This document shows, piece by piece, positions 5,839 through 56,646 of a stretch of DNA of 64,000 bases (positions within the stretch are counted from its first letter, which is position 1; the number at the start of each line of letters is the position of its first letter). This DNA is from Moniliella sp. 'wahieum'. Lineage: Eukaryota. The stretch is from NCBI GenBank assembly GCA_003971905.1, contig RSEE01000034.1, positions 1-64,000 of the forward strand, written 5' to 3'. The notes under the pieces are model-generated. The model had not been told where the DNA came from, ran no database searches, and saw nothing but the letters and a program-made list of their open reading frames with translations. The position numbers and the translations under genes were made by a program.

Positions 5839-7063
5839 CCGATGGGCTAATGAAAAATGATCCTGTGGGGAGATGGCACTCGTTTATGAAATGTCCTCCA
5901 CCCCGGCCTATGTGCGCCAGCGGAGGATGTCCCATCGCCAGAACAGCCCAAGCGTCCCATTACTCGAACTGATTAGGTCAGTTCAAAGCCGGGGATTGAA
6001 GTACACTGGAGCAATTCCCTTCCGGCAATACGTGCATCAATATGCGGATGAAGTGGTAACCCGTGAATTCCGGATAAACCGTAAGGGGAAACGCAGCGTC
6101 TAACGGATAAGCAGTGCTTACACGCCCAAAAAAAAGACGAAAATAAAGGCAAAGTGCGAACATCCTTCTCCCCTTCCGTTTCCATTCCGTCTACCGCGTC
6201 CGCGTCACTCCCCATTATTCCCGACCATAGTGCATCTCGGGCTTGCGCACTGGATCCGTGATTGCGCCACAAGTAAACGCATCGGTCATCTGCATATCTA
6301 TATGCTCTGACGAAACGAAAAGTCTGTCTTGTAGTCAAAAGTGGGCCGAATTATTTTCCAGTTTCGGGGAGAAGTGTACGCTTCCTCTCCCCCCCGCCCT
6401 TTTTTAGTATGGATTTCCAACGTCTTCAACTTCTCAGCTTCTTGCCCGAAACACTCGAGAAGGAACCCGTGTTGGAGGGTAGTGCTAGGGTCCCCCGCAC
6501 GGCCCTCGGATCAGTTGATCGGTAACGCTCGCCTAGCCGGGCGGAAGAGTTCCGTTCCCAGGTTGAGCACTCCCTGCACGCTCCATATCCCGGCCCTCTA
6601 TCATGTCTGCTTACCTTCGCACGTTGCTGGGATACTTGTGGCTCACCACTTTCCCTTCATGCTTTGTCTGAAGGGTTTTGCAGTTGATCCATAGGATCGC
6701 GAGTGCTCCCAATAAGTCGCATCCAAGCAATCAGGGATCGATAGTCGCTAGTCGATAATCGTTGACCGTTGAGAGAATGTAGACTTGACAGGCTCATCTG
6801 ATCGACCTGAGGGCCTGAAGCCTGATCCATCTCCTTCAGTTCATACCCTTTGTCTTGCCCTCGGATGGCGCCTGCGTGACGCATGGTGCATGATGCATAC
6901 GATGGCATCAGTACTCAGTGAGTGTTGAGTACTCAGTAGTACTCAGTGGAGGCGGGGAGGAAGAAACAGGCGTAGGAAAGTTGCAGACATCGGAGAGGGG
7001 TTTTGAGCCTTATTTGCTTGAAGACCGGCTTTAACGTTTAACATTAATATATACTAACTCCCG

Positions 7064-10000
7064 GTGACCACCACCTCGGCACCGGCCATGGTGTTGCGCA
7101 CCGTACGGCGGATCCCCCGAGGAGGTCTGGCGCCCGAGACGCCCCCCTCCCCGGGAGCCCCGCCCCCCGCTCCCGCTCCGTCTCCCACACCCGCCCTTTC
7201 CCCTACGCCCGCCCCTCTGGCCCCAGAGCACCAAGTGCCGGTCGATGAGACATTCACTCAACCTGAGCAGATGCCTGACCACGTGACCGGCGCCGGCTCG
7301 CTGCCACCCGGGGTCCTGGCACGTGACACGCCCGCCACGCCCGCCGCCGCCCCCACCCCATCCCCACCACCCCCGTCCCCGTTCCCACCACCACCGACTT
7401 GCCCCCTGTGCGCACGTACAAATGCGGTCGCTGCGGAGTCCCTGGCCACAACAGACTCCGCTGTCCCCGCAACTCCGAAGCCAGGGACCCGGTGCCCGAA
7501 GTACTGGGTCAAGGCACGCCCCTCCTCCCCAACCCCCAACCCGCCACCCCCCGGCGCCGCAGCCCCCGGCTGGCCTCCGAGCAGCCAACCAATGGCAACG
7601 GTGCCGAGGCCCCACGCCCCACTACCCCACGCCCGCGCCGCACCCCCGCGCAGACAGCCCTCCCCGCCCCCGCCACCCTCACCCCTCAACCCCCCCGCGC
7701 CCCCGCGCACACCGCCCCTGCCGCCGCCGCGGTCCCCCCACCACCACCACCACCAGACGGCCGCGCAACCCCTCGACCGACACGGGGGCCGACCTCCTCC
7801 CCCGTTTGACCGCCCTTGCCGAACGCCCAGGCACACGCAAGATACCGCCACACTGAAGCGCCCTTTCCTCAAGATGCTCGAACGCCTGGCAGATGCTTAC
7901 TTGCAGGAGCCCTCGTCAGCACACCTGATGGATATTCTAGCGGTGCCGAAGGAAGTACTCCGCCACCACAACAAGGACAATGACCTCATCGGGACGTATC
8001 CCAACAAGGCCTGGCAACTCCCTCCGCCCCCGACTTCTCAACGCGCGAAGCTCCGACCCAGTCACCAAAGCCAATCGCCTCATTCGGGAGGGCTGCCTCA
8101 GCCGCGCAGCAAGTACCCTCGTCGGCCAATCCACCATTGCCCCTCTCACCCCGAGACCCAGGCAAGCCTGGAAAAGCTCCACCCCGTTGGAGAGGCGAAC
8201 CCCTTCAACCTCGGTCCGGGCACAGCCTTCGGCAACGCCTCCAGCCGCACTCGTCCTACCCACACAGGCCGCGAGGTACCGCCGGGCACCACCCTCACCG
8301 ACACGACGGACAGTAACCGCATCGTGGTGGACTTGGACGAAATCGACTTTGTTGCTCTGATTGCCACGTTCAGAATCGACGTTGGGGCAGGTCTATCCGG
8401 GTGGACCCAGCCCCTCCTGAAAACGGCCCTTGGATGCGAACGCTTCGTCACCTTTCTCACCGCCCTCACCAAGAGTATTTACCACGGCACTGCCCCTGGA
8501 CGCGAGCTCCTGTTGGCCTCCCGCCTTACCCCCTGGAGAAGGCATCGGGAGGTATCCGCCCCATCGCCTGTGGGGAGCTGATCTACCGCCTGTGCGCCAA
8601 GGCCATCGCTCGAGCGATCAAACCCAACAGCTGGCTTCTCCCCACCCAGTGGGAGTAGCATCGCAAAACGGGGTGGAGCCTATCGTGCGGATGGTCGAGC
8701 GCATGACAGCGCCAGGCGGGGAGAACGATGCGGAAATGGGCGACTTCAGCCACGTCGCCATGCTCGACTTTACCAACGCGTTCAACACTGTGCGCCGTCG
8801 CACACTCGCCAAGGCGCTCCATGCCTACGCCCCCCACCTCCTCACCTTGGGCCGGTGGATCTATGGTTCCCCCACCAGCTTTGGGTTGCGTCGGGCGGAA
8901 ATGAGACCAGCGTCTGTCGGCAGAGGGCGTGCGGCAGGGCGACCCCCTCGCCCCCTTTTCTTCTCCATCGCAGTGCGGCCCACGCTAGAGAAGTTGAGCA
9001 TTGCTCTGCCGCCGGGGCACCTGGTGATGGCATACCTGGACGACATTACCATTTTCGGTCCAGAGCCAGGCATTACCGGCCAAGCTGCGGAGATTTTGGA
9101 AGACGACGCGTCAGGCCTCAAGCTCAACCTGCGCAAGTGCGTCGAGCGGGACCGGGACCAGATCCGGGAGGATGGTCTGCAGGTTCTGGGCACTTGTGTG
9201 GGAGGGGTAGACTGTCGTCGATCGTGGCTCCGGGCCCAACTGGCCAGTCTGAGGGAGAACATGCCTAAGTTTGATGGCATCACCCGCCAGGGACGCCTCT
9301 TACTATGGCGGCTCAGCACTCAGACCAAGCTGCGCCACCTGCTCCGCACCATGCAGATGGAAGGAGAGCTAGACGAAGTGCTGGCCGAGATCGATGCCTT
9401 CATCTGTACGGAGTTCAGACGGATCCGGGGCGACGAGGATCCCCAAGGTGCCAAGGACGACCACTTCGACATGCTCATGAGCCTGCCTCTCCGGCTAGGA
9501 GGATGCGGCAGCCCGCTTTACTCGTATATCGCGCCCCACGCCCGTGCCGCGGCCAACGAGGTCAACGACTATCTTATTACCACTTATGTTGACCGTTCGG
9601 GACCGCAAACGGCAGAGGCCAACGCATTTACGAAGCAACGCCAGCGCTGCCGCGAGATGTGGGAGAAAAGTCGACAGGAGCTGCTCCAGAAGCTGGACGC
9701 TGCGATGGTCGTCCGTGGTTGAGCACAGCAACCCGCTGAGCCACAACTGGCTCTCCGCCATTCCGTCCGTCCCATACCTCAGGCTCTCCGACCAGCAGGT
9801 CCAGGTTGGTCTCCAGCTCCGCACGCTGTGCCGCACCACGCGCAGCATGTGCAAGTGCGGTGTCATGTCCTCGCTGGAGCACATCATGTATTGCACTCGC
9901 TCCCAGGCCAAGTTTGGAGCGTTGCATGACGCAGTGCGGGAGCCCATTCTCCAGCTCCTACGCTCCATTCCCGACACCCATGTCCACAACGAACCAATGG

Positions 10001-11633: not shown

Positions 11634-11793
11634 TGTCGGCCTCGCTACTACCACAGAATGTGAGCACTGAACGTCGTATTGGACTAAGAAGCTTCTGCGA
11701 CTGACTCGTCCAGAAGACTGGTGCGAGCTCGGAAGGAATGAAAGCTGACTCACGTGACTCAGGGTCCGCGCGGTCCTAGGACGGATGTCAACA
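11634..11793 (-). repeat. 3' LTR of the copia element (160 bp)
   Basis: Direct repeat of 16533-16691; identical by eye apart from a 1-nt indel near one end. Confidence 0.95.
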
Positions 11794-14700
11794 CCCCCGC
11801 TGACCGGAGGGCCCAGTCATGTGGACTGGATCCATCTCCTCGACGCGGAGTTGAGCAAGATGGCTTGTCAGGGCGGGACGGCCGAGAGGCTTGGTGAGGA
11901 CGTCCGCTGGGTTCCTTTCGCCGGGGATGTGTACAAGTATGGCCTCGCCCGAGTCCACGTGTTGCCGTACATTGTGGTACCGGATCTTCAGCTCTCGGAG
12001 CTTGCCGGTGCTGCCAAATTTGTGGGCGAGATCGACGACAGACTTATTGTCGCAATACCAATGAATGGGTGTACCCTCGCCGATGGCCCCAAGCTCGATC
12101 ATGATGTTCTTGACATAGTTGGCGTCAACCAGTCCATCATATCCTGCCGTATATTCGGCGGCGGCGGTACTGGTAACGCTCTTCGGCTGAAGAATGGATC
12201 GCCACGACACCGGCACACCGTACACCATCAGTAGGCATCCAGATGTGGAGCGTGCCTGGATGGGATCTCCCGCCAAGTCGGAATCTGTATACAGCGCAAT
12301 GGCCGGTGCATCTGATGTTGGGGTCAACCTCAGGCCCTTTCCTCGAGTATGGTACAGGTAGCGAAGGAAGTCATCGACTGCTTGATGATGCTGCTGCGAT
12401 GGGTCGGCAGCGGCTCTGCTGAGGGCCGTGATAGCGAAGAGGGAGTCAGGCCGGCCCATTCGTGCAGCCCACAGTCCCGATCCGATCTTCCCCTGATATG
12501 CCTTGCGCAAGGCTGGGAGGGATGGGGGTTCAGGGTCGGCACGGGGCGGTATCATCCGTACGGGATGTGGGAGAGTCCGGATCCACGGGGCTTTGATGTG
12601 GTGCTTTGCCACCACTTCCTCGATGAACTTTGGTTGGCTCAGGTACAGCTCCCCACCGATCCGATCGTATTGGCATCCCAGGTGGTAGTGAAGGGGACCG
12701 TTACCACGAACATCAATGTGTGTGTTTATCTCGGCCATAAACTCCTCGTACTTTTGGTGTGACTTGCATGCGAGGAGCAGATCGTCGGTGTGGACCGCCA
12801 GGAGGATCTGCTCACCCGGTGGTGCAGCGCGCACGAACAAGCAGGGCTCGGTCAAGCTTTGCGTGAAGCCGAGCTTGTCACGCAGCAGGTTCCGGATGTA
12901 TCGTGCCCAGTTTGCTCCGCTCTGATGTAGCCCGTATAGACTCTTCTTGAGACGCCACACGCGACCACCCGCTTCGGGGAAGTAGGGGGGTGGGCGGATG
13001 TAGACTGCTTCTTCGAGGGGGGCGTTCAGGTACGCTGCATTGACGTCCGCCGAGAAGAGGCCAAACTTATACTTCTCGGCCAGCACGACGAGGGTCAGGA
13101 TGGCAGGTGTGCGCACCGATGGTGCGAACGTCTGGCCCCAAGTCTCGGCCGATTGTTGGTGTCCGCCCGCGACAAAGCGCGCGCGGTGGCGCAGGAACCG
13201 GCCCTCGGCGTCCGTCTTTGTGGTGATGCGCCATAGTCCTATGAGGATTTGTGCACCCGGTGGTGGGTACGTAGCCTCGTAGGTGCCGTATCGCGCGAGT
13301 GTGGCCACCTCGTCGGCCATAGCCTGCTTGACCATGGCAAAGGAGGGGTGAGTCTCGAGACCCTTGAGCGTCTTGGGAGCGAGGGGTACGCCATCCTTGG
13401 TGAGCTGAACCGTGTCCGGGTGGATGGGTGCGCTGAGAGCAGTCATGGCGGCGTATTCGGGAGGTTGAACTGTGTCGGCAAACGGGGGGGCGGATGTGTC
13501 AGGTAGGGGGCGGGCGATGCCGATCTCTGGTGCGGCGCAGTGGGGCGTGGCGGCTGCAGCACGAGCATGGTAGGTCGTGTCGGTGGGGTCGTCAGCGATT
13601 GGGAGTGTGTGCAGGTCGAGGGAGGTGCGGGTGGTGCGCTGGCGGAGGGGGTAGCGGCGCGGAGGGGGGGTGGTGGTGGGAGCGGGTGTCTGGGGTGTGG
13701 CGGCGGTTCGGGGCATGGGTGCTGCCGCGGCTGGCGGAGTAGGGTTAGCGTCTTTTTCACTGTCGATTTTAATTTGAGGTGATTTGGAGATGTCGGGTGG
13801 GAAGTGGTCGGGGTGGAGATGGGGGTAGATGGCGTTGCCCCATTTGTACGGTTTCGACCAGCGGTAGGTGAAGGTACCCAGGGATGGTTGGTATGTGGCG
13901 AAGAGCCATCCCTTTGATCCGCGCTGATGGTGGTATCCTACCAGCATACCTTCCTCTGCCCGCGCGCTGAGCTTGTGCTCGCGGCGTGACTCGGGCAGAT
14001 GGAGGTATGCAACGCGGCCAAAGGGTTGCATCGGTAACGAGTATGCGTGGCCTTTGTATCGCTCAAATCGCGATTTGTTGTCTTCCCCGGATGTTTTGAG
14101 TGGCATTTGGTTTTGGGTGAAGCACGCAGCGTGGAGGCTGTGTTCCCACCAGTCCGACGTCGGAAGACCTGTACCCAAGAGCAACTGCCTTGCACGAGTC
14201 GTTATGGTTCGGATGGCACGCTCAGCCACACCGTTGCTAGCACTCTGCCCCGGGATTGTCCGTTCTGACGTGATGCCTTGCTCGTCCAGAAAAGGTTGCA
14301 GTGCGCTTGTCAATTCGGGGGCGTTGTCCGTGCGCAAAGTCCGCAGCAGTCTGTCCGGGCCGTAGCGTTGCTCCCGCAATATGAGGTTCCGCAGTTCCTT
14401 CGTTGCAGCGCCCTTTGTCGGGATCGCTGTGGTGAAGACGTACCGCGTGAAGTCATCAACGGCGACGAGGGCGTATCCGTGCCCCATGCCGGTTACCCGG
14501 GGGAGGTCTACTACGTCGACGTGGAGGACCTCGAAAGGTCTTTTGGATCGGAGGCGGTCCCGGCTCGGATGGGGCGATGCTGTCGCTAGTGCCACCGCGC
14601 ATGTTGGGCAATCCCACTCTGAACGACAGAGGGAGATATGCTTGGCTGTGACGCGGAGGCCTGCGGTTTCCGATCGTGTAAGCCAGGGGAGGAGGTCGAT

Positions 14701-15230
14701 GGCTGCGTGGTTCCAGCGTTTGTGGGCTTTAGAGACGTGGTCCAGGGCCAGGGATGCTGCGAGGGAGTTTGGGGTTGAGGGTGGGTCGGCCGGTTTGATC
14801 GGTTTGGTCGCCATGGCCCGCAGGGGTGGGGTGGCGTTCGCGGGTTGTGTAAGATCGTGAATTGATAGTCACTGCCGGTTACTTTTCGTAGGGTGGATCC
14901 TGGGTTACCAAGCCAGATACCCTTCTGGTGTGGGGCGAAGTATGATGCGATTCCGGTGTTCGACAGGTGTGCTACACTGACGAGATTTCGGCTGAAACGG
15001 GGCATGTATAGGCTGTTGGGGAGTTTTATCTCCATTTGGTGTCCTCCTAAGCATCGGATACGGATTGTGGCCGTGCCTCGTCCTTCCGCCTTTACATGTG
15101 TCCCGTTAGCAACCTCTATCTCGTCGTCGCAAGGGGTCATGGATGTGAAGACGGATTTGTCTTTCCAAATGGATGGGAATGCCCCACTGTCATATAATGC
15201 CCGGATGATTCGCATTTCGCCCCCGAGTTC
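11788..15230 (-). CDS. pol: Copia Pol (protease-integrase-RT-RNase H); one frameshift near 14820
   Basis: Protease LYDSGA...IEVANG; HKRWNH...CPTC zinc finger; integrase LHVD, VDDFTRY, RTDNAPE and NGVAERAIRT; RT ARFVAGG, DVNAAYLNA, LKKSLYGL and HTDD; RNase H YTDSD, CDNKS and NPADVLTK. Confidence 0.95.
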
Positions 15231-16478
15231 CTAGTAGTCAGCTGTGCCCGCATCAACGTCAATCACTTCAGACTCGGGAGAGCTCGCTCTCTGAGCGACG
15301 TGAGCGTTGGCTCGGCCTGGGTTGCGCGGAGGGACAACAGGTTTATTAGACGTCGCGCTGCGCCAGGGTTGGTTGGTGCGGTCTTGCCCCTTGGTCTTTG
15401 TGTCCGCGAGGTTGTCGTCGCCGGCTTTGCCCCCGCTGGAGTTTTTTCCCCCGCTGGTGGGTCGTCCCCCGCTGTCGGGTCGAGTCCAAGGCGTTCCTCC
15501 GTTGACCGGCTTGCCTCCGTTTCTCTTCCTTTCTCCACCGGGATACGTGGCGGCTGGTATGTCCATCACGGCCTGCCGTAACTTGTCTAGACTCGAGCGC
15601 TCTTCACGCTGGCGAATGCTCATGTCGCGTAAGCCGAGTAGGATCCCAGTGCGTTCCTGCTCTTCCGTAAGTGGGATGCCCGCTCGCGTCAGGCTTGCAC
15701 TGATCTCTTCCATGTAGTCGAGGTAGTCTCGACCCGATCGGTTTCCTTGGTCGGCCGAAAAGTAGCGAATGAGTAGAGGCCCTCTGTTTGCGGTAGGCGT
15801 ATATCCATACCGCTGACGCAGCATGTTCAGCGTGTCCTGGGTGCATGATATTTCGTGGTGGGTGCGGATCGTCCGGAAGAGGGTTGACGGCATGGCTTCC
15901 CTAAGAAGGTTGTGCAAGCGTCTGTCGAGGTCCTCGGTGAAGTAGCGGGAGCTGCGACCATTCTGGACGACGTCGCTTGCGTGGGGGTGGGCATCTGTTA
16001 TCGCGAAGAGAAATTCGTCTTCCCAAGCGCTGTAGGCGGACGGGTCTTTGTTCAGATCAGGCCACTTGATATTCTTGGTGGGAGACTCGCGTAGTGATCT
16101 GTAAAGGTCGTACTCGGGTCGCGAGGCTGCGCCTGTAGGTGCCCCCAAAGTTGCGTTGGGTTGAGTTTCCATTTGGTGGATGTTTTGCACCACAAAATTC
16201 GTAGCCCGTCGAACCCAGTTTGTCGTGATAGACGTAGGTTCGTCCTTCCATCCAAGCCACTCGGCTCTGTCGTGTATAGCTCTGTTGATCTTCTCTTTAA
16301 CGACATCGATGTCGTTCGTCTTCTTGAACCACAGGTGCGCTTCGGCGCAAAGCATCATGAGTTCCTCGTTGTCGGTGCCAATCGGTGGCGGATCGCGACC
16401 GGTTGGTGTCCAGTAATCGCGCTTGTTCACCATTGTGGTGTCGCTGACCGAGAGATCGGTGTTAGCGTTGGCGCCCAT
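15231..16478 (-). CDS. gag: Copia Gag
   Basis: ORF from the first ATG after the 5' LTR (MGANANTD...) to TAG at 15231-15233. Position upstream of the protease; no CCHC knuckle seen. Confidence 0.8.
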   Translation of the reverse strand: MGANANTDLSVSDTTMVNKRDYWTPTGRDPPPIGTDNEELMMLCAEAHLWFKKTNDIDVVKEKINRAIHDRAEWLGWKDEPTSITTNWVRRATNFVVQNIHQMETQPNATLGAPTGAASRPEYDLYRSLRESPTKNIKWPDLNKDPSAYSAWEDEFLFAITDAHPHASDVVQNGRSSRYFTEDLDRRLHNLLREAMPSTLFRTIRTHHEISCTQDTLNMLRQRYGYTPTANRGPLLIRYFSADQGNRSGRDYLDYMEEISASLTRAGIPLTEEQERTGILLGLRDMSIRQREERSSLDKLRQAVMDIPAATYPGGERKRNGGKPVNGGTPWTRPDSGGRPTSGGKNSSGGKAGDDNLADTKTKGQDRTNQPWRSATSNKPVVPPRNPGRANAHVAQRASSPESEVIDVDAGTADY

Positions 16479-16532
16479 GGTTGTGGGTGTAGTTTTGGCC
16501 AGCTCAGGGATGAGCAGATAAGGATGTAACTC

Positions 16533-16691
16533 TGTCGGCCTCGCTACTACCACAGAATGTGAGCACTGAACGTCGTATTGGACTAAGAAGCTTCTGCGAC
16601 TGACTCGTCCAGAAGACTGGTGCGAGCTCGGAAGGAATGAAAGCTGACTCACGTGACTCAGGGTCCGCGCGGTCCTAGGACGGATGTCACA
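16533..16691 (-). repeat. 5' LTR of the copia element (159 bp)
   Basis: Direct repeat of 11634-11793. Confidence 0.95.
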
Positions 16692-18530
16692 ATGCTGGTT
16701 CCCCAGCGATATTCTGAGTGCAGTTATGCAGTGGTAAAGGGAAGACAGGAAAATAAGAAGAAGTTGGAGTGGCACTAGGCCAGAGGATAGGGATACTGGC
16801 ATGGTACTCGCCTATGTAAGAAGGTCAGAGTGATCGATGATCTCGGAGGTGATGACCCTCAGATTCAGACCCTTCTGCCGGTCAACAGGGTTAAACGTTA
16901 ACGTTAACGCCTAACGTTACGCGCCAATGTGCCTTCGGATCCCGCCACTTCTGGGATCTAGGATCTATAACGCGATAACGTACTAAGGTCGGACATGTCA
17001 GTCTGACAGCTGCCACCGCTGCCATCACAAATCCCAAACTCGCTGGCGTTCGAGCCTGTTGGACGTTGGACGTTGCCTCGTTGGGGCCCCAAAAGGCCCT
17101 CACCGTCCGCGTACTCTGAATCGTGGTTGTTAGTAGAGTCGGCGCAGCAGCGGTCTTTGAATTCATGGAAGCGGCGGTTTTTGCCACATGTATATCACCC
17201 TTTCCACGGGTGCGACACTGTCATGCCTCACCGGTCACCACTAGTCACTGCCCCAGGGTCACTAGGTCACTACGAGGCGAACGGGGCCTCTCTTGTCGCT
17301 TGATACATAGCGAGATCTCACCATCGCTTCCCGGATCGAGGATCTTAGATCATCGATCATCGATTATCGATTATCGATTACAGATCTCAGAATCTCACCG
17401 GTCACCGAGGTGAGTACTCACTGAGTGTACCCGACCCCAGAACTCACCGCACATGTGGGGCTGCAGTAACTTTAATAACTCGCCCCAGTTTTGGCCACAG
17501 CATCGATCATCCGTATGTTGTAACCATGTCACATGTCATGCATGTCATTGACGATGGGACAAAGAAACGCTGCGCCAACACCCCGCCCGACCCGTTCATG
17601 GGGCGTGTGTTGTTGCCTGTCAACTCATGTCAACGTTCAAGCGCCCCGGTCGATATCGTAACCTTACAGTTCTGACATAAGCGCTAAGCTGCTCACATGG
17701 CGCTCACAGGGTGAACGTTGAACAACAGGGTAACGGTGGCTATGGCGATGATGGCAGGGTGGAACGGTGGGTGGCAAGCAAGCGGGGCCGTGGGCCCGGG
17801 GGTCCTCTAGTCGATATAAACATCGGTCGACTTCCCCACCGCGTGCATCATGCACCTTTTGCATCATGTCACGGCACCCGAGCCCCCCGGGATCACGGAT
17901 CGATCACATATCGTACCCCCACTAGTTGATCGCATGTATCAAGCGCTCAGCCTGAGCCACCGGGTCCAACTGGTACTGAACCTTCAACGTTAGGATATAG
18001 TAAGCCTTCGGTGCGGGCTTGGGTTAATAGACGCAGTTCAATCCGGCTGCCATGACCCTTCTACATGCCTCAAGCCTGACCGGCCTGACCTCCCGCCCCG
18101 GCCTCACATGCCCTCGTTTGGGCCGGCGGGGTCCACTATTTTCTCTCTCCAACCATCTGTCTTCATGCTTCACTAGCTTCAAGCTTCACCGCTCTTCGCC
18201 ATTCTGTCGGAGTTGTAACCGCACAAGCGGCTATAGAGCTATAGCCTTGGCGCGTCAGAGATATAGATCTTGGCACACGAAAAAAGAGGCATGCTGCATA
18301 CGAAATGGGAGATGGAGTGACTATAATGTTACGTTCGTAACCGCGTAACCCTCCTCAGGTGTCACTTAGTCACTGACCCCGGTCATCGGGGCCATCAATC
18401 GCAGCGGTCATGAACTGTATGAACGTTTTCGACCGCTTTTAGCGCTAAGGAGGCTTATGGCTAAGGCTTAGCATGGGCCACAACATCAATCGATCATCAC
18501 ATTAATCACGGCACTTGGGCACGTTACTTG

Positions 18531-18836
18531 GTTCAAGCTAGCTTCAAGCCTTCAAGCTTCAAGCTTCAAGCTTCAAGCTCTTCAAGTCACTAGTCAAGTG
18601 TCAAGCGTGAAGCTTTCTAGTTCTTCTAGGTTTAGTAGGCTGTAGTATAGCTATTGAGCGAGTGATTAGTAACTAGTAACTAGTAGACGTTCAACGGTTC
18701 AACGTTCAACGTTCAACGAACGTGAAGCGTGAAGCTCAGCTGAAGCTCAGAAGCCTGAAACTAGCTGAGCGCTGACCGGTGACCGCTGACCGGGGATCAG
18801 TGCCCGCCTGTGCCTCGTAACGCGTAACGCGTAACG
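18531..18836. repeat. Cluster of period-7 palindromic microsatellites: (AAGCTTC)n, (ACTAGTA)n, (AACGTTC)n, (ACCGGTG)-like, (ACGCGTA)n
   Basis: Read directly from the sequence: ttcaagcttcaagcttcaagc, tagtaactagtaactagt, acgttcaacgttcaacg, cgtaacgcgtaacgcgtaacg. Confidence 0.9.
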
Positions 18837-33133: not shown

Positions 33134-33807
33134 GGGCGGAAGAGGAGGTGGTGGGAGCGCGGGAGGGAGGCGCAGGATGGATGGAGCAAAAGCAGCAACA
33201 ACGGAGCGCAGGCCGTGGCTAGTATTCAGTACTCAGTACTCAGTACTCCGTGGCCGCCGCATCCACACCTCGATTTCAACGCCAATCCAGGCACGGCACC
33301 AGCAGGCACGCGCCCAGCCGACACTGCGCTGGTGCGCCTGTCGTCCCCGCACTAGCACCCTGGCACCAGGGGGCACACAGGATCGGATGGATGATGGCGC
33401 GCTGCTACCAGTGATTGACTTGCTCTGGCCTGTTCTGGCCACACCGCCTCCCCCTGTCGCCGCGCAGTTTGCACATCTCCCGCCCACGTCCGTCTGCCAG
33501 CCTCGTCCGGCCGATAGACAGCTGCTGCCGGCAGCCACCGGCCACCACCATCACCACCGATCACCTCAGCCGCGCTTTCTACGCGGCTATGTCCCTTGCT
33601 TTCCCCCTTTTGGTCACGTTCATGTCGCTACAGTTGGCGCTAAAACCTGTGGCTATCATATTGAGCTGCTGTCCATCACTAGTCACTTTGCCAACAGGCT
33701 TCCAGCCATTCTGTCTCAAAAGTCTTGTCGAGTTGCTTGTGGACATCTCTTGCCCGGTTCTTGCGTTCGAAAACCGCGCCTCATGCAACAAGCCGAATGG
33801 CAGTGCG

Positions 33808-37334: not shown

Positions 37335-37824
37335 TCATGACACTCCTTCATTTATCCTATTGTGGCATAGAATAGATTCCCAGGGGGCCAAACCGACGCC
37401 CTTGAGCCAAGCCCACAGACATACTCTTGATATAAACATCGACATCGATGTCTACCCCATCGTCCAATGTAATGTGCAATGGGGAGAGAGGCGGCTGGGC
37501 TGCGGTTGCGCTTCTGTGCATGAGCGTGTTGATTTGATCACAGCACAAGCTGTACCCGAAAGTTGAAGTCCTCAGATGGAAAACCCGGGATCCGAAATCT
37601 CTCTCAATCTACCCCCGTCCTCTCTTGCGACAGGGAGTGTGGCCAATGTCGGGGATGCTGATGAATCCATCTCATGGATCGACAGCGACCAATGACTCCC
37701 CTCTCAAGTTCATTGTTGTGATCAAGCGAGGACGGTGCGTACCATCACTGAGTGAGACGCTCAAGATATATACTAGCGTACACGTTCAACGTTCAACGTT
37801 CGAACTTCATCGATCATCCGTATC

Positions 37825-38014: not shown

Positions 38015-38526
38015 TTGCAGTACGGAGTATAGAGGTAACGTATGTATTTAAGGTCGGACGTATATGCTCTGTGGGTGCATGCAGTATGGTCGCTGCTCGA
38101 TCACGGTTGTGTGGAGCAAGCCATCGGAGCGATAGGATAGGCCCTATGAAGGCCAGGGGCTATCCATCAGTTATGCATAAAATGCCCTTCGATGATAATC
38201 GATAACTAGTAACTAGTAACTAGGCACTCGCTGCCAGTTTTGGGGAAGGGGCTATATGTAGATGCCACTGGCCCCACAAAAGGATGGATGCAAAGGCATA
38301 AGGAGTTTCCGGTGGTGTGTACCATCCAAAGATGTAACATGTAACAATGCAATGCGTCTGTGCGCACTCGCACTACACTTTTTCTCTCCCCACCGGATAC
38401 CAAAAAAATATATAAAGAGCCTCGTCCTGGGGCTGAACACCGCCGTACCCACCACCCCCTCGTCCCTCGTCCTTTACCACACCCTCGCCTCTCACCGCAC
38501 CTATCACAACAGTCTACTTATCCAAC

Positions 38527-38915: not shown

Positions 38916-41900
38916 GTTTTTTTTCTTTTCCACTGTGTGGGTGGGGCCTTTCTCTCCCCCCCCTGGTTTTTTGTCCTGTCTGATCGATGATCGATTCCTT
39001 CTGTCCCCCCGCATCTGATCACTACCAATGTGGGCATATGGCTGTGCGGTCCAATGGATGTCCTGGAGTTGAAAGTTGGGTAAGTACCAGTAGGTTAGAA
39101 CGACCGAGGAAGCATGTAGTATCAGATTGTCGGACTGGGGGCCACTCTGGTAAATTGTGAGCAGCGCACAGACGACTGGGGATTGGGCTATGGTGGGGTA
39201 AATGACTTGGTTTCAATCTTTCTTCTTCCTTTTGACCTGACGCGTGATCATCGATCATCCCGGCTCGTGAACGCGTCCGCTCGCTCATCGTCACCATCGG
39301 GGCCGTTCCCCTCTACCATCCGAAGACCTTGTGAGGCTGTGAGGCTTTGAGTCTCCCCCCCTTCCCGTGTTCACAATGCCGGCAACTGTGCGTGACCCTT
39401 TACATGGCGGGGGAAGTGAGAAGTGAGAAGTGAGAAGTGAAGGACTGACATCGGCTGAGCACAGGACGCACGTGTGTATACTACTGCTTATGTGGCGAAT
39501 TTGCGCTGGTGATGAACGGGTCGGTGGAACAGTGTCCGCGCCGTCCAGCCGATGGGGCGTACGTCTTGTCGCGCGCAAAGGGAAGGACGTTTCAGTGGAA
39601 CGCTGAGCCTGGACCGGCGGTATATGTACGACGGTGCGTACTTAGTACTTAGTACTTACCTCCTTGAGCTTGCCACGCTGCGGGCAGAAGAGAAACCACT
39701 GGAGTACTGACATTCTGACATCTGACACGCCTCCCCCCTCCCCCTTTGGTGAGTAACGATTGCAGGGCTGAAAGTTGGAGCGACAGTACCGCGTGCAATG
39801 TGTCCGATGCAAGTTGACGCTGGGGTACCAGTCCACCCCCCGCCGATCGATGTGGGGCCATCTCGTACCTGCTTCCTGGGGCGGTGAGCGCAGTGCAGGG
39901 CGAGGCACCGGCCGATGCACTGACCCTGCCTGCCCTTACGCCCGCACCAGGACCAGATGTGCATGGCAGCGATGCCACCGGGGAAGGTGAGGCGCTGGTC
40001 CTGGGATGAGGTGAGGCGGAGGGGTTGAACGTTGAGATGATGTACAGAGGTACAGAGGTACATGTCCGCGTTGAAGAGCTACGGCTTCGCAGGCTGCCTT
40101 GAAGCTTGCTGGATGGATGTTTGCGCTAGACTACTGGGGCTGGGAAAGTTGGGAAAAGGTGCGTGGATGCATGGACAGGGAAGGGTGGACGCAGGGCAAG
40201 GTTCCCAAACTTGGCCGTGCATCATGCATCATGTGCCAGTGGTAACCGGTAAAGGTCGATTCCGAGCGCGTGCGTTTCGTCGTTTGGTGGGGGCCATGGC
40301 CGGGGATGGATGGGACCCACTGGTGGAAGTCCCGCACGAGTTAGCGAGTTAGAGAACACAGTAACAGTAGCCTGAGAATGACACTGTAGCAGCCAAGACG
40401 TGACTGTCATAGCGACCAGCGACCCCCCTAGCAGGGATGGGCACCGATGGCAGTGAGCTCTTCAAGTTTATCCTCCGACTGGTGGCTGGTAGACCGTGAC
40501 TAAGCACCTCACTCTGACTGTCCCGCATAGTCAGCTCCACCATCGCGTGCTTCTCCATCTCGCGTCCAAAGGTCTGACATTGGTCACTACCAGTTTGCCG
40601 GTGGGCGTCTATTGGACCAATGACCCCCTCCTCCCCCCCGGATGTGGTGATACAGCCATCGATGTCACCTTCTCTCCTCTCTTCATCCCTCTCTCCCCAA
40701 ACGGCCACTACATCACACCTGAGTTACACCGGAGGTACAAACCTTGTACGTTACCGACACCGCGTTTGCTCTCACTTTTCTCTTGGTACGCTGTCCTCCG
40801 CACCGGGTACCAGTTTGCTTCCCCTCCCCTCTTCCCACTTTGGCCACCTGCTTCCCCCATACTATTTAGCCTCCCTAATATGTGGGCCCATTAGCGGCTC
40901 CACCAGCAGCATGACTTCTTCTCTCTATACCGTGGATTACTTCACCCCCGCATAATGCATGATCCTCCCTTCCTCCACACTCGCTCTTAATCCACCTATG
41001 ACCGAGCCCGAGACCGTTCCCCTGCGGTGCCTTCCATCGCCAAACTTCTACTTCTATGCTTCCTGCACAGAGGAATGGACCGTCACTAGTATCCGTAGTG
41101 AAGCTGAAGAAGAGATGGTGTGGTGGGACGTTTGCTGATTAAAAGAAGAGATCTACAGTGATGGACTCTCTGTGCTTTTGCCTTAGGCCTTGGTAGTTGA
41201 CAACAAAACGGCGAAGAGGTTCAAGAGGGAGGACTACGGATTCAAGCATTGGGTTGGGAGCCTCTGGCGGAGTAGAGTAGCAGGCAATGCGAAAATGGTG
41301 GTTGAACGATGAACGTGCACATTGAACGCTGAACGTACGTCGAGGCACTTGGACCACAGTTGGGCAGGAGAAAAAGGGGTTCATCGAATCGATTATGCAC
41401 AGGCACAGGGGCTTCGGAAGTTACCGGTTGCATGTTACACCGAGGGGGGAACGGGTAACGCGGTAATGCGTAACGTTAAACGTTAAACGTTAAAGGGGTG
41501 CCACAAAAGCATCCGGCTCTACGTAGACCAACCAATCCGGAGGTTCCGGTAACCGGCAGTGGAAAAGGGGAAAAGGGGAACTGGGGAAGCGGGGAATCCG
41601 GGGAAGCTGAGGCGCTACGCTGAATGTGAATGGCTAAAAGCACTTCAGCTGAAGCTTCAGCTGAAGCTTGAGCCGGAGGCTCCTTAATAAAAAGTAAGCT
41701 TTAAGCTCTTGGAAAAAATAGCGAAAGATGGCAGGCATGGGGTCCGTGTAAAAAAATACGCTTTGGATGGGGGGGGTGATGCATACTGGTGGTTGCCTGC
41801 TGCTGAGTCTGAGTGTGACAGTTGGAACAGTGCTCTGGCCCTTTAAACAGCTTAACGCGTAAGGCGCTAGGCGTAACGCGTAAGGCCTTGGGCGCGTACC

Positions 41901-44868: not shown

Positions 44869-46515
44869 CGTCCGCTACTGCCACTTCTTTTTCCTTCGTT
44901 TGCTTTGAATGACCTGTTGCATTACCCTTGCTCTTGCGATTGCGGTTGCGGTTGCACTTGTGGCCCATACCCGCGCTTGAGACTTTGTTGGCCCCACACT
45001 TTAGGGAGCGAACTTGTCTACCTACTTGGCGTGGCCCTTGGCAGGATGACGACGACTTGTTTCCGCCCCTCTCTCATTTCTTCCTCGACGCATTTGCATT
45101 TGCATTGGCGCAAAGGTGCTTGTTCACGTGCTGTGCGTCCGTGTTGCTTTGCTTGGTGCGCCAAGCTGGAATACCCTCGTCTGCGTTTCTCGCATCCTAT
45201 CTGTGTACACTTTCCTTGCATACATTTTCTCTCGGATGAACTTGGTCGTTGAACGTGTTTGGATCCTGGCATACAAACACATGGGGTAGTGGGTGTGCTT
45301 GTGCGGTGATATGCTGGTTGGTTGGACTGGGGGTTGGTGCGGGCGGGCGGGGAGCGACAACGGGATGCGGCCGCAGTCTGGTGTGCTAGACACGTCGCAG
45401 CGGGATCACACTGTCCAAGGATGGCCGATGTTGGGCTTGGATGGCCATCGTGTGCGCGCTGGCGTGGATTCTCTCGGCCTTCCGACAAGTCAAGCTTTCA
45501 GATTCCAATTTCAGATTTCAAGCCGCATCCAACTGGCAATGCGGGACACCGTGATTGCGTCATCGATCATCGATCCTCAAATCACCCTAGTTGCGATGGC
45601 TGGCCGAGGGCGGTGCGAACGGGGTAGGGACACGGGGTTCCGGGTCCACAACGATCCACTTGAACGTTCAATATGCATTGTACGTCCACTGTCCAACCCT
45701 AGTGTCTGTGCATCCTGGGCAGACGGCAGACCGACAGAAGCGGGGCGAGGCGCGCATCCGCAGCGTCCCTTTCGCAGCTTCTCGCAGCTTCTCGCAGCCG
45801 CACGCCAACCGGCCGAACACTGCTGCCACGCCGAGCATGCATCCTCGTCACATGCCACATGCCACATGTCACATGACACAGTAACCGGTGACCGGTGACC
45901 ATGCATTGGTCATTGATATTGATCAGCGAGTAGTACTAGTCAAGTAGTCAGAGTCAGAGTCAGCGGTGGCGTGGGGCCAGCTAGGTCCAGGCGATCCGTG
46001 GCTGCGCCACCGCCTCTCCACAGCTCTGTTGGGGCGCTGGCCCGAATTTGGGCGTTTGGGGATCCCAGCCGCACCCGCCCAGTGTCCCGCCAACGTCCTA
46101 CGTACCCAGCGTCCAGCCGGCACCAGCCCCTGACGCCATCCGCCACACCGGCGCCGTACGAGCACGAGCAAGCGCCGCCGCAGCACGGCCGGCTGCCCGC
46201 CGCGCATCCTGCATTCTGCGCAGCGTAGCCGCCGCCCCCACACTCCCCCTGCCGCCGCATTCTAATGCAAGTCCTAGGTCCCAGTGACTTGGGCATGCCA
46301 CATGTCATGCGTCGCGTCACGCCCTCGCGCCTTGGCGCCTCAGCCGCTCAGCACCAGCACAGCCACAGCCCCCCTTCAGCTTCAGCTTCACCCTTCACCC
46401 TTCACTTCACCCTCTTTATTAGACTGGCTCAACATCCACCACCCCCTTGCCAGCCTCAGCGCCGCAGCCCCTCTCCGCCATCTTTCTCCCCCACCACCTC
46501 ACTTCGCCACTCGTA

Positions 46516-48414: not shown

Positions 48415-48450
48415 GTTACATGTTACATGTTACATGTTACATGTTACATG
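48415..48450. repeat. (GTTACAT)5 palindromic heptamer array
   Basis: Direct reading of the sequence. Confidence 0.95.
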
Positions 48451-49708
48451 CATTACAGGAGATCAGGGTGACGTTGGACCAGTGGCTGACCCTCTGTCCC
48501 TCTGACCCTCTGACCGGCTGACCGGCTGACCGTTGCCCAACGTCCAACAGCCTTCGCAGGCCACTGCTTTTCTCTCCGACCTCATCGTTCATCGTTCATC
48601 CCTATCGCCATCTCGGGTTGGTACCACCTAAGGCCTAAGGCCTATAGCCATGCTCCGCGCCCTTTCGGAACCGAGCCTCAGCACCATGCACCATGCACCA
48701 TGCACCTTCCATCACCGGTATCATATATCACCTGAAAGAGAGTTACCTCGAGGGCGGCAGGTTCCCGGTCATCTGACCTGAAGATGAGAGATCGATTCGA
48801 TGAGAGGAGCGGATATACTTTTTTGGTTTTGTTTCGCCATCATACGTCGGGGGGGACTATTGAGTGCTGATACACTATGCGGCCGAAGCGCTGACAGTGC
48901 AGACACAAAGGTGTACATGTGCACCGTATAACACGCCTTGGCCTCTCGACTGTTCTTTGCCCCCGCGGATCGATGCGCCGGGCGGGGGGGGGAGGTGTAG
49001 GCGCCTATACTAATCTACCGCTGTCCTCCGACAGGCTTCACTGAGTATTACTGACGCGCGACGCTCCCACGTCCCACGTCCCATGTCCCACGTCACGTGG
49101 CACACGTGACGTGCCACGTAGCCCCGTGGAGCGACAGGCGCCGAATGCAACACTTGAATCTCAAAGCTTGGAAGCTTGAAGCTAGCTTGAAGCTTGAAGT
49201 TTGACCCTGAGAGACTCAAGGCACTGACTGGGTCAAGGTACTGTCGGATTGAGGTAGTGACGATCCCTGGCAGCTAGCTGGCTTGCCCCACCCAAGCCGA
49301 CCTGTCCAAGCCGCTGCCCACCCCCTATTTCTGCTCTGACACGTACGTGGGCGTCAGGCATCAGGGCGTCGGACGTCTGGCCTGACCTCAGGGGCGCGGG
49401 CGAGGGCGAGGGCGAGACGTTCTGTGCTAGTTTAACCCTCACCATCCACGAGTCCTTAGTCCCTAGTCGCTAGTCCCTTGCCGCGTTCACTGATGTATAT
49501 ATGCTCCATTCCTCCATCCACACAGCGCATGCAATAGGTCGGCCCAGGGGGAAAGAGATGGTCGATGGTCGATGGTCGATGGTCGATGGCGCGGGCAGAC
49601 TGGTATCCACAACAGGGGCCGGATGTCCACCGTGGGCAACTCGCAGGTGGCAACTGGCAGTGGGGCAGCTCGTAGCTCCTAACTCGTAGCTCGTACCTCC
49701 GTAGCTTG

Positions 49709-52533
<2,825 letters not shown>

Positions 52534-52969
52534 GGCTAGTGGCTCGGGGTGCAGGCGTGGGGGGTAGGTGGCTGTCCAGCCGGGGGGGTCGTTAACGGTT
52601 AATGGTTCAGCCGGTGGGGCGCGGGGCGGAATGGGCTGGTGTGGTTCCGCCGCAGCGGGCGTGGTGCCACGTGCCACGTGCCACCTGGCAGTGGACGCGC
52701 AGCGTGGCAGCGGTCGTCGCCGGCTGGGTTTTGGGTTGGGTTGGCGCAGCGCTGCCACCACCGCGCCGCCCGTCTGGCTCGATGCACCCGTCCTACCCGC
52801 TCCCGCCGCCGTCGGGGCAGCCGCAGCAGCCGGCCGTGCCTGGCGCTGCTCCCGCCACCAACGTGCCCGGGGCGGCTGTGCCTGTGCCTGTGCCCGTGGC
52901 CGCGGCTGTGCCTGTGCCTGCGCCCGGCCGCCGCCCAAGTCAACCCGCACGCGCAAGCGTCCCGAGCCC

Positions 52970-54798: not shown

Positions 54799-56646
54799 TG
54801 ACGTGCCCCGGCCGCTCGTGCTCAGATCCAGCAGGGCTCCCAGATCCAGGGCCCTTACCTCCCCTTTTTGGATCGGATGTTGGCCCAGCCGCCTAGTACG
54901 TGAGGCGTGAGGCCTGAGGCGTGAGCGCGGGAGGCGGGTGCCAGACGATTGGACGCCTAGTACCGGATCGCAGTACCGCCCTCGGTCTGTGGCAGCTTCT
55001 TAACCCGCGGTGCATGGCCAACGTGACCAAGGGCGCACGATTTTTTTTTGGCTCGGCCGCAGATCTAGATCTTCGGACTGAGAACAAGCGAACGCGAACT
55101 ACTTCTAGAATAACTGATTGCATATTTTGTTTCCCCTCAGGCCTCAGACCTCAGGCCTTGCGTGGTGCGATTGATAGGTTGATAGGTGCGGTCAACGAGC
55201 GTCGATGGCAAAGGCAGGTGGCGACCGTTCTGTACCAACATGTATGTCAACAGAGATATCTGTACAGGCGAGCACGGCAGCGATGAGATGACCGATGATC
55301 GATGACAGGGATACAGCAGGAGCACGCCGGATACTATTCTCGAACGTCGGCGCGTCTTTTTCTGCAGATCCGGGCGATCTCGATGATCGATGAGAGATCT
55401 GAGATGATCGATTGATCGATGAGGATGTATATGTTTTTGAATGGGGGGGGGGGGGTATAGGCAGTTGGTGCATTGGAGGCGGTCGGTGATGAATTGTTCG
55501 TGTGCGCGCTCAGTGTACGGCTACGTCCCTGCGATATTCTCTCCTCCATGTTCTCGCCGAAGAATGCTCCCTATACTTTCGTTTGCTTATCAAGGACTGC
55601 CCCCCCCCGCAAACGTTTTCCGTAATAGGAGTAGGAATAGGAGTTTTCTGCGGCCTCATCATCATGACGTTTTTTGCCATCTGGGTGCGCATTACTATCT
55701 TTGGCGAGGACGTGGATGGATCGGAAGAATAGGTGGGATGCATGGCAAACACAAATAGCTGTAACGATCGGGATTATCGATTATCGATCAGGTCGATCAG
55801 GGTCAGTAGGGTAGGGGATTGGATGTGAAATGTGAAACGGAGGCATCAGTACTCGAGCTAGTACTCAGTCCTACTGAACCTACTTGGAGCTTAGGCGAGG
55901 CTGGGATCTGACGCGTGTGGTGTTGTACGGGAGAGACGCGTGGGGAAGGCGCAGGCGCAGTACTGAGTGCATTGTGGGCAGGGGCGAATGTTGAGCCAGA
56001 GTCGACGCGAACTGGCAGGCCGGCTCGTTCGGTTAGTCGTGCGTGGCTGTACGGCGTGAGTGGGTAGTGCGCGATATGCCCGAGTGCGGCGTGGTGCGGG
56101 TGGGTGGCGTGGGTGTGTGATGGATGAGCGCAGAAAGTACCTGAGTACACTGGTATTGCTAGTTACTGAGTACAGCGTGGCGGGGCGACGTCTGGCGAGG
56201 TGTGAGATGTGCGATCTGAGCGCAGCGGCCGGCACTACCTAGGTACTCTGGCTGGGATGCCTGGGGTAGCCAGTAGCCAGTAGCCCGCTGGAGCAGGCGG
56301 GAGCAGGCTGGAGCCGCGTGTTACAGGTTGGCGTCACCCACAACTGCGTCCGGCCGATCACGCTGGGCAGCGTGCTCAGCGTGCTGGCGGAGGTGCTGGG
56401 CACGGCCGCACGCACTGGCAGCACCATCGCACCATCCGCCTAATCCTTCTTTTTTCCCGTCCGTCCTTGTCTGTGTTGGCGGTGGCGCTCCTCTCGTGCT
56501 GCCCCCCTTCTCCTGCGCTTCAGCGCCGCGCTGCTCCCACCACCTCTTCCTGCGCGCGCGCTTCCTCCTTTGCTGCCCGCGCATGGCCTGCGCCGCGGCC
56601 TCCTCGTCTTCTCCCGCTTCACACGTCCCAGCACACATATCCCCGC

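Follow-up and report, generated by a model that had tools for sequence, protein, structure and literature searches.

Palindromic heptamer arrays with a T-N-A rule in non-coding DNA of a basidiomycete-like chromosome end

A chromosome end rich in period-7 arrays

Our data comprise one 64-kb subtelomeric stretch of a single assembly (the window). A telomere-type CCCTAA/CCTAA repeat at its start (2..29, found by TRF), a Copia element and genes for Rab6 and Vps18 mark the window as the end of a basidiomycete-like chromosome, from a poorly sampled, Ustilaginomycotina-like lineage. The Copia-type LTR retrotransposon (11634..16689, minus strand; RVT_2, rve and SH3_retrovirus matches) is young, active and 5-bp-duplicating, with two 157-bp LTRs that are 100% identical. 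Like the telomere repeat, it is context and separate from the arrays described here; it is inserted in array-rich non-coding DNA, with arrays on both flanks.

Tandem repeats of period 7 dominate the window. TRF reported 136 non-overlapping arrays, 51 of them of period 7 (period 6, 16; period 8, 11; period 9, 15), whereas ten Markov-3 shuffles gave about nine arrays in total and 1.2 of period 7. Counting exact arrays of 17 nt or longer gave 33 at period 7, 22 at period 6 and 5 at period 8, compared with 0.06, 0.24 and 0.06 in shuffles (n = 50). Of lags 1–40, lag 7 had the most recurring 7-mers (384 positions; lag 6, 242; lag 8, 82). The shuffle control suggested in the first-pass annotation thus returns a large excess by both array counts. 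As a distinguishing mark of this genome, however, period 7 fails, since prokaryotic intergenic heptamers share it, according to PMC6344855.

Arrays occur in divergent promoters, in a likely 5'UTR, downstream of a gene and in gene-poor stretches, and are dense at 37.8–42.7 kb and 45.5–49.7 kb, where no genes are recognisable. Self-BLAST of the window recovered neither a dispersed repeat family joining the array-rich regions nor inverted array pairs. Conserved exons had been noted as free of arrays, and none of the 69 A....T runs defined below overlaps the ORFs with Pfam hits (13,267 bases).

Palindromic units and the T-N-A rule

Exact period-7 arrays of at least two copies have a unit made of a 6-bp palindrome plus one base in 31 of 63 cases, against 11.3% of background heptamers (binomial p = 1e-13). 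Palindromy is confined to period 7, with no excess at period 5 (18/84 versus 26%), period 6 (2/71 versus 4.5%) or periods 8 and 9 (0/17 and 0/9). Twenty-eight of the 31 array palindromes are of the form A....T, compared with 167 of 790 (21%) palindromic hexamers outside arrays (p = 2e-16), and A-N-T centres are nearly missing (1/31). T-N-A is also the strongest of the 16 X-N-Y classes in lag-7 autocorrelation (2.35 versus at most 1.55), bearing out the T-N-A junction first proposed by eye; this signal is lost once tandem runs are masked, and the 790 palindromic hexamers outside arrays show no excess (A....T, 167 versus 162 expected).

Lowering the threshold to runs of at least 12 nt gave 215 period-7 runs, of which 77 are palindromic and 69 A....T, where Markov-3 models predict 53, 5.6 and 1.1, and Markov-5 models 58, 6.4 and 2.7. 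A Markov-5 model trained on the array-rich DNA alone predicts 6.8 where 45 were observed. The 69 A....T runs use 14 of the 16 possible 4-bp cores, and their N (C 26, G 23, A 12, T 8) tracks base composition without strand bias, so that what recurs is a symmetry of the DNA and not one particular sequence. Run counts fall with length (12–13 nt, 41; 14–16 nt, 11; 17–20 nt, 7; at least 21 nt, 10), which is ordinary microsatellite behaviour.

The longest array is AACGTT+T (6.6 copies, 7.7 by TRF; 29583..29628), between a proteasome-subunit gene (minus strand) and a kinase gene (plus strand); it is predicted to fold into a hairpin (z = −2.86) with N.N mismatches and a T-T-A triloop. At 17348..17380, ATCGAT+C (2.4 copies) runs into ATCGAT+T (3.1 copies): N changed and the variant unit was re-duplicated (ATCGATC to ATCGATT), as ordinary microsatellites do. 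AAGCTT+C (4.3 copies, 18550..18579; DNA fold z = −3.15), ACTAGT+A (2.7 copies, 18667..18685), AACGTT+C (3.1 copies, 18697..18718) and ACGCGT+A (3.0 copies, 18816..18836; exactly three, in the odd-palindrome frame CGT-A-ACG) lie close together. Further arrays are AACGTT+C downstream of an M16 peptidase gene (2.9 copies, 37782..37801), ACTAGT+A (3.0 copies, 38203..38223), AGTACT+T (3.0 copies, 39638..39658), AACGTT+A (3.3 copies, 41472..41494), ACCGGT+G (2.4 copies, 45884..45900), ACATGT+T (5.1 copies, 48415..48450; DNA fold z = −4.68), AGGCCT+A (2.6 copies, 48627..48644) and ATCGAT+T (2.4 copies, 55772..55788).

These observations confirm the pattern described in the first-pass annotation and make it broader than first stated. 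All 21 sites it cited were read, and 20 carry the hexamer palindrome plus one base in head-to-tail copies, as described; at 11057, AGATCT-C is present twice, but within a repeat of period 16/9. Its claim of many cores within one architecture stands on the core counts above, and its point that generic slippage is insufficient holds, given palindromy at period 7 alone and the T-N-A rule. The two dyad axes 3.5 bp apart are present but tell nothing further, since every sequence of period 7 that has one dyad necessarily has the second.

Copy number, folding and a proposed origin

Two heptamer populations coexist, one of arbitrary-sequence period-7 arrays like those of many prokaryotes and one of A-x-y-y'-x'-T + N units. 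The two are supported by the resemblance of the non-palindromic arrays to background, both in self-complementarity at distance 3 (20/32 versus 59%) and in T-N-A content (12/32 versus 25%). Examples of the former are GAAGTGA (4.0 copies, 39413..39440; fold −0.2 kcal/mol, without hairpin potential) and GATGGTC (4.7 copies, 49557..49589). Palindromic arrays are predicted to form T-N-A triloop hairpins (z = −2.9 to −4.7 for three long ones), and no fold is predicted for non-palindromic arrays. Median copy number is nonetheless equal (2.4 palindromic versus 2.3 non-palindromic, p = 0.32), most arrays having just 1.7–3 copies and the highest 6.6–7.7. Fold-back thus gives no visible help in growth, and the bias must arise at birth.

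We see an even chance that the palindromic arrays are a neutral, lineage-specific mutational product, in which 7-bp duplication hot spots at T-N-A-centred dyads are followed by slippage. We infer both the neutrality and the birth step, at which a 7-nt direct insertion or duplication would be ~30 times likelier at y'x'-T-N-A-xy dyads than at a random heptamer; growth would then proceed as whole units are gained and lost via replication slippage. Because the unit is self-complementary, the slipped-out strand could fold back into a 2–5-bp stem capped by a T-N-A triloop, with N.N mismatches spaced 7 nt apart, and the folded intermediate may escape flap or loop processing. T-N-A would be favoured because it is probably the weakest and most kinkable 3-bp centre. 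Several observations count against this explanation: copy numbers are equal, at birth a 7-nt unit allows just a 2-bp stem, hairpin stability alone leaves the scarcity of A-N-T (1/31) unaccounted for, and the 12-mers and array ends described below are not what plain duplication and slippage would give.

The iterative fold-back or template-switch synthesis first put forward predicts that N alternates with its complement. In T-N-[A....T]-N-A sequences we found the same N in 88 and the complementary N in 10, and this direct copying argues against fold-back synthesis. Quasi-palindrome correction and short-range template switching create or perfect short inverted repeats in yeast, promoters included (PMC3820800 and PMC13100816). 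Such a process makes inverted copies and would turn N into its complement, whereas here N is copied directly and palindromic hexamers outside arrays are not in excess.

Alternative origins and known systems

Of 26 A....T runs of 12 nt, 20 are a 12-mer with sharp boundaries, TNAxy-y'x'-TNAxy, which is the most frequent short form. An example is TCAGT-AC-TCAGT at 6908..6919, where two palindromic nucleotides separate the copies of a 5-nt direct repeat. The flanks of the 12-mer carry the period onward in just 3 of 20 cases per side. A simple tandem duplication of 7 bp does not yield this form, nor does the decay of an array with two copies. Of 99 cases in which a 2-nt spacer separates copies of a 5-nt repeat, 38 counts (36 distinct runs) have a spacer that is reverse-complementary to an end of the repeat, against ~4 in shuffles, and no such complementarity was seen at periods 6 or 8. 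Array ends fall at the core centre in 19 of 62 cases and starts at phases 1, 3 and 5 in 24 of 31; this clustering, which slippage does not predict, suggests that cutting or joining may follow a set geometry. Ten of the 31 arrays have lengths exactly divisible by 7, four of these in the odd-palindrome frame, and none of the arrays of 14 nt or more begins with T and finishes with A.

A rather unlikely alternative is that a dimeric nuclease (a transposase, an integrase-like enzyme or another) made staggered, dyad-symmetric cuts that were filled in and rejoined, leaving the arrays as scars. Either a 7-nt stagger centred on N would duplicate y'x'TNAxy, or a 5-bp target duplication plus two palindromic nucleotides would give the 12-mer, as in excision footprints, with arrays built by repeated cuts at the regenerated site or by later slippage. 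The 12-mer's succession of direct repeat, short palindromic filler and direct repeat fits such a cut, as do the spacer complementarity, the restriction to period 7, the preference of ends for the core-centre dyad and the exact multiples of 7; direct N is expected if N lies within the duplicated overhang, and an active 5-bp-duplicating Copia element with identical LTRs is at hand. LTR elements do not excise, however, no DNA transposase domain was found in the 163 scanned ORFs, and TIR elements are at chance (7-bp duplications, 3 versus 0–3; 5-bp, 2 versus 0–4). A protein's target preference would also yield a palindromic consensus, not perfect per-site palindromy with 14 cores, and arrays reach 6.6–7.7 copies. 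The 5-bp model is at odds with the asymmetry of the pentamer T-N-A-x-y, whose last base is A in 1 of 20 12-mers, and forms bounded by T-N-A, expected if T-N-A were duplicated as a 3-bp unit, are not favoured. Cut-and-paste excision footprints consist of a target-site duplication plus a few palindromic nucleotides (Tc1 TA-CATG-TA; hairpin-derived P nucleotides of hAT, Transib and RAG). The 12-mer resembles them in its duplication, palindromic filler and duplication, but no matching element was found in the window, the arrays are multi-copy, the pentamer is asymmetric and extreme uniformity would be required.

Selection for cis-elements, as clusters of dimeric-factor sites or as hairpin/cruciform-forming or nucleosome-excluding promoter elements, is improbable. 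Several arrays do lie in divergent promoters or upstream of ORFs: AAGCTT+G (2.7 copies, 25844..25862) ~240 bp upstream of the minus-strand ORF for Vps18, the 29583 array between two divergent genes, AGTACT+C (3.3 copies, 33226..33248) immediately upstream of a minus-strand kinase ORF and a four-copy CCACGTGAT array ~400 bp upstream of Rab6. Stable hairpins are predicted for the long arrays, three 7-bp units arithmetically equal two helical turns, and the ACGCGT and CACGTG cores match what we take to be fungal cis-element motifs, the latter in CACGTG+C (3.0 copies, 52664..52684), one of just three palindromic heptamer arrays outside the A....T rule. Yet with 14 of 16 cores in use and N free, no single factor fits, which speaks against sequence-specific binding; arrays are also dense in gene-less stretches, 3' of a gene and around the transposon, most are too short for cruciform extrusion at 1.7–3 copies, and N has no strand bias. 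An assembly, base-calling or polishing artefact is very improbable, as Pfam-supported coding sequence is avoided (0/69), 14 cores occur, point-mutated units are re-duplicated, the assembly yields intact ORFs and two 100% identical LTRs, and no error mode of sequencing known to us would produce exact palindromic heptamers solely between genes.

The proposed lineage specificity agrees with our sole comparison DNA, 592 kb of metagenome contigs each chosen for holding an AACGTT array, in which the pattern was not matched. A....T runs with other cores occur there at 0.019 per kb versus 0.95 here (~50-fold), and of 93 other heptamer arrays 7 are palindromic and none is A....T, while period 7 leads there too (210 arrays versus 19 of period 6). 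In full-text searches of the literature we found no description of the pattern in any eukaryote and no known mechanism. CNG repeats share its formal architecture of an even palindrome plus one base: their odd period is a CG palindrome and one base, either strand can form hairpins with a regular N.N mismatch, and fold-back is held to shield slipped intermediates from flap or loop processing. Unlike the arrays here (period 7, at most 7.7 copies), they have period 3 and no T-N-A rule and can expand to tens to thousands of copies; set against them, our palindromic arrays have copy numbers no higher than non-palindromic ones.

Tandem heptamers are the commonest intergenic repeat across a wide range of prokaryotes, with no clue to function, according to PMC6344855; GGGNATC repeats (PMC4692102) and Geobacter heptanucleotide elements (PMC2700814) have also been described. 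The prokaryotic heptamers (Xanthomonas GGGAATC, Nostoc GGGGAYT, cyanobacterial STRR, Geobacter) likewise have period 7, are mostly non-coding, span two to a few tens of copies and, as here, have no explained origin. They comprise one or a few units per genome, G-rich or arbitrary and not internally palindromic, whereas the present arrays are from a eukaryotic host, with 14 cores in use, each unit a palindrome and one further base, and a T-N-A rule. They are real, non-coding heptamer microsatellites, and we regard it as evenly balanced that they are a neutral by-product of the making and repair of small duplications in this lineage and not a set of binding sites.

Statistics of the heptamer grammar

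The sequence grammar is real and statistically overwhelming, and it occurs in a eukaryote. The first-pass annotation had described tandem heptamers made of a 6-bp palindrome beginning with A and ending with T (A....T) plus one free base (N), and this description fits all 21 cited positions, 20 of which are period-7 tandems. It had also proposed a comparison with shuffled DNA; run on the window with Tandem Repeats Finder (TRF) and k-mer lags, this comparison found an excess of period 7, with 51 of 136 TRF arrays at this period versus 1.2 in shuffles, 33 exact period-7 arrays of at least 17 nt versus 0.06 expected, and lag 7 as the top lag for recurring 7-mers (384 positions). Nearly half of the exact period-7 arrays (31 of 63, 49%) have a palindrome-plus-one unit, compared with 11% of background heptamers (p = 1e-13), and this bias is absent from arrays of periods 5, 6, 8 and 9. 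The array palindromes are of the A....T type in 28 of 31 cases (90%), compared with 21% of palindromic hexamers outside arrays, which is exactly at expectation; the claimed T-N-A junction between units follows from this composition and is upheld. The preference for this one heptamer symmetry class is roughly 30-fold.

Extending the count to all A....T-type period-7 runs of at least 12 nt gave 69 runs, compared with 1.1 under a third-order and 2.7 under a fifth-order Markov model, so the annotation had seen only the tip of the pattern. Even when the fifth-order model is trained on array-rich DNA alone, it predicts 6.8 such runs, versus 45 observed. As the annotation had noted, many different cores (the 4-bp middle of the palindrome) are used, 14 of the 16 possible, with N roughly tracking base composition, and the arrays are indeed missing from conserved coding sequence, with none of the 69 runs overlapping Pfam-supported ORFs (13,267 bases). 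The paired dyad axes at 3.5-bp spacing that it had emphasized are present, but they add no information, because a period of 7 together with one dyad necessarily creates another at the odd base. A general excess of palindromes was ruled out, as palindromic hexamers outside arrays occur at expectation, and the excess of 13-nt odd palindromes (58 versus 16.6) mostly consists of the arrays themselves. A degenerate, window-wide period-7 T-N-A phasing was likewise ruled out, as masking the runs abolishes the signal.

Chromosomal setting and other repeats

The window (G+C ~57%) starts with a CCCTAA-type telomere repeat and encodes a C2H2 zinc finger protein, ribosomal protein S18, Vps18, a proteasome subunit, two kinases, an M16 peptidase and Rab6/Ypt6. 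The telomere repeat, a Copia element, Rab6, Vps18 and kinases with interrupted ORFs mark it as eukaryotic. The Rab6 exon is 78–79% identical to Ustilaginomycotina proteins, and the M16 (MPP-alpha) fragment is 58–60% identical to proteins of Tilletiaria, Melanopsichium, Moesziomyces and Sporisorium and 86% identical to one further protein. For Vps18, the best match of any kind is only 48% identical, and a search of metagenome contigs with a Vps18 fragment found no relative. From the telomere repeat, the eukaryotic genes and the protein identities, we conclude that the window is the end of a chromosome from a basidiomycete near Ustilaginomycotina, in a lineage that lacks close annotated relatives. 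Rfam and tRNA scans of the window gave no match. Positions 1–6700, beside the telomere, have lower G+C (46–52%), no Pfam match and no A....T palindromic heptamer run of at least 12 nt.

A young Copia-type retrotransposon (11634–16689) with two 157-bp LTRs of 100% identity and largely open gag-pol ORFs of 1026 and 526 aa lies in array-rich non-coding DNA; judging by its flanks, the target duplication may be 5 bp long (ATGCT), provided that the LTR extends 2 nt past the BLAST boundary. A reverse-transcriptase fragment at ~8.4–9.7 kb (weak RVT_1 match, 8421–9719) belongs to a series of long plus-strand ORFs (7058–10503) adjoining C-rich low-complexity repeats (7133–7755), probably a degraded non-LTR retroelement. 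None of 15 self-BLAST pairs in the window connects array-rich regions, which rules out that these regions are copies of one repeat family. At 16883–17730, the 8-bp direct repeat CAACAGGG brackets 832 bp ending in AACGTT-type 12-mers in inverted orientation, and ACAGGGT.AACG is found three times locally. This was the single 8-bp target-site-duplication case in the scan for elements with terminal inverted repeats (TIRs); it is accounted for by two AACGTT runs acting as pseudo-TIRs and looks like a local duplication, not a mobile element.

Several other repeats were observed. A 99-bp tandem (46830–47151; 3.1 copies, 82% matches, 33-bp sub-period) overlaps ORFs without a Pfam match and may be a repetitive coding region. 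Dispersed duplicates pair 28363–28503 with 24892–25032 (83% identity) and 28765–28922 with 10423–10580 (88%), one of them in the Vps18 region. Near Rab6, a GGCAGGC array (x5.6, 50479–50517) lies ~30–70 bp from the start codon and is thus probably in the 5'UTR, and an exact period-9 array of CCACGTGAT (x4.0, 50835–50870) lies ~400 bp upstream of the start. Even-period, fully palindromic tandems are represented by CTTCAGCTGAAG (x2.6, period 12, 41643–41673) and AACGTT (x4.2, period 6, 16894–16919); both are rare relatives of the period-7 class, and full palindromy is seen in just 2 of 71 period-6 arrays.

Array anatomy and known repeat systems

The arrays fall into two populations. In self-complementarity and T-N-A content, the 32 non-palindromic heptamer arrays cannot be told apart from random heptamers, and no fold is predicted for them; for long palindromic arrays, the predicted fold is a hairpin capped by a T-N-A triloop, with N.N mismatches recurring at 7-nt intervals (z = -2.9 to -4.7). 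Copy number is equal between the populations, which indicates that the palindrome bias is fixed at array birth and leaves hairpin-driven growth unsupported. Among short forms, the most frequent is a discrete 12-mer, TNAxy-y'x'-TNAxy (y'x' being the complements of y and x), which makes up 20 of the 26 A....T runs of 12 nt. On either side of it, the period carries on into the flank in 3 of 20 cases, no more than chance, so 12-mers are not decayed two-copy arrays. Where 5-nt direct repeats are separated by 2 nt, this spacer equals the reverse complement of the repeat end in 38 of 99 counts (36 distinct runs) versus ~4 in shuffles, with nothing similar at periods 6 or 8. Array ends fall at the centre of the 4-bp core in 19 of 62 cases, and 24 of 31 array starts fall at phases 1, 3 and 5.

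The odd base is copied directly: in T-N-[A....T]-N-A contexts the two flanking bases are the same 88 times and complementary 10 times, a bias missing from other palindrome classes. Fold-back or template-switch synthesis, which the annotation had suggested, leaves a complemented base beside the palindrome and is therefore contradicted.

Heptamer repeats have precedents in prokaryotes. According to one survey, no intergenic repeat is more abundant across prokaryotes than tandem heptamers, for whose function there is no clue (PMC6344855), and two further papers describe GGGNATC repeats in Xanthomonas and Nostoc (PMC4692102) and heptanucleotide elements in Geobacter (PMC2700814). These prokaryotic heptamer repeats (SSRs/STRR) resemble the present arrays as 7-nt tandems enriched in non-coding DNA, but their hosts are bacteria and archaea and each genome carries one or a few dominant units without internal palindromy, whereas the window is eukaryotic, with Ustilaginomycotina as the best named relatives, and holds 14 cores with palindrome-plus-one units in about half of its exact arrays. 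The 'palindromic microsatellite repeats' of Fusarium are mitochondrial mobile palindromes (PMC7218506), and heptamers go unmentioned in the accessible section of a tree-of-life STR survey (PMC12699852). The full-text literature searched, which lacks most subscription journals and so leaves absence unproven, describes no internally palindromic heptamer arrays from the nuclear genome of a fungus or any other eukaryote; to that extent the annotation's statement that it knew of no description is borne out.

For comparison, at least 125 stretches matching (AACGTTN)x3 were retrieved from metagenome contigs, and 123 loci among them (592 kb in total, mostly prokaryote-like; two overlapping loci, L074 and L075, are each counted) were analysed. 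Period 7 dominates these loci (210 arrays versus 19 of period 6), but their other heptamer arrays are palindromic in 7 of 93 cases and A....T in none, and A....T runs with other cores occur at 0.019 per kb versus 0.95 per kb in the window. The multi-core A....T grammar was absent from all 123 loci; period 7 is thus widespread and the palindrome-plus-one, T-N-A grammar is not. Four metagenome contigs (L014, L017, L010 and L069) each carry 7–12 exact period-7 arrays and almost none of other periods, with related units in adjacent arrays (for example, GTTCAAG, GTTCAAT and GTTCAAC), a dense prokaryote-type pattern.

The arrays are best filed with hairpin-capable microsatellites and heptamer repeats. 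They share the hallmark of classical slippage microsatellites, exact head-to-tail units with unit variants propagated within arrays, but such microsatellites have unit frequencies set by composition and need no unit symmetry, in contrast to the palindromic and A....T biases found here.

Origin and significance

We favour a neutral mutational origin, held with about as much doubt as belief. Direct duplications of 7 nt would arise preferentially at T-N-A-centred mini-palindromes, with slippage following the birth duplication. Fold-back of the self-complementary unit is the likely cause of this preference, and T-N-A would be the sole junction class that has two A.T pairs and cannot avoid a pyrimidine-purine step. 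The weak points of a neutral origin are the equal copy numbers of the two populations, the merely tiny stem that one unit can form, and the discrete 12-mer and phased ends, which look more like a defined cut-and-join geometry.

These weak points lead to a staggered-cut or excision-footprint process as the second-ranked reading, although we consider it unlikely. The 12-mer has the form of a transposon footprint, a duplication around short palindromic filler; however, the pentamer in the window is asymmetric, the expected length of 7k+5 is found in just 2 of 31 arrays of at least 14 nt, and per-site palindromy across 14 cores is left unexplained. A footprint also needs a cut-and-paste element of matching duplication, but we found no element or enzyme for such a process: none of the 163 ORFs scanned in the window has a transposase domain, and structures with TIRs and 5- or 7-bp duplications do not exceed chance. 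A variant combining a 3-bp T-N-A target duplication with two element-end nucleotides was rejected, as the arrays show no preference for T-N-A-bounded forms and 49 of 69 runs have C or G at N. Selection of the arrays as cis-elements is less probable still, given that a homotypic transcription-factor cluster shares one motif, whereas these arrays combine diverse cores with a free N and also lie outside promoters. An artefact is very improbable, because the arrays avoid coding sequence and carry evolved variants.

Beyond a neutral origin, we tentatively raise a bolder possibility, itself doubtful, that a dedicated lineage-specific activity inserts exactly 7 nt at T-N-A mini-palindromes, or that the arrays now serve as co-opted structural elements of promoters. 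The candidate writer would be a dyad-symmetric enzyme that nicks or joins DNA, or else an unusual repair polymerase pathway, with the 12-mer as its putative primary product. If true, such an activity would be a new eukaryotic mutational signature, and its cause might also underlie the unexplained 'prime-number' heptamer arrays seen in prokaryotes.

In microsatellite theory, unit sequence is nearly irrelevant once the period is fixed, and the strength of the symmetry-class preference, the strict T-N-A junction and the discrete 12-nt founder form are set against it. The grammar is a sharply defined, countable signature of a duplication process that might be traced to a repair gene or a nuclease, and it gives a eukaryotic way into a long-standing question, why many prokaryotes favour period 7 in their intergenic tandem repeats. 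Should the arrays prove to influence promoters, they would supply regulatory variation that evolves fast, and if the pattern is genome-wide, it would provide a ready diagnostic marker for a poorly sampled fungal lineage.
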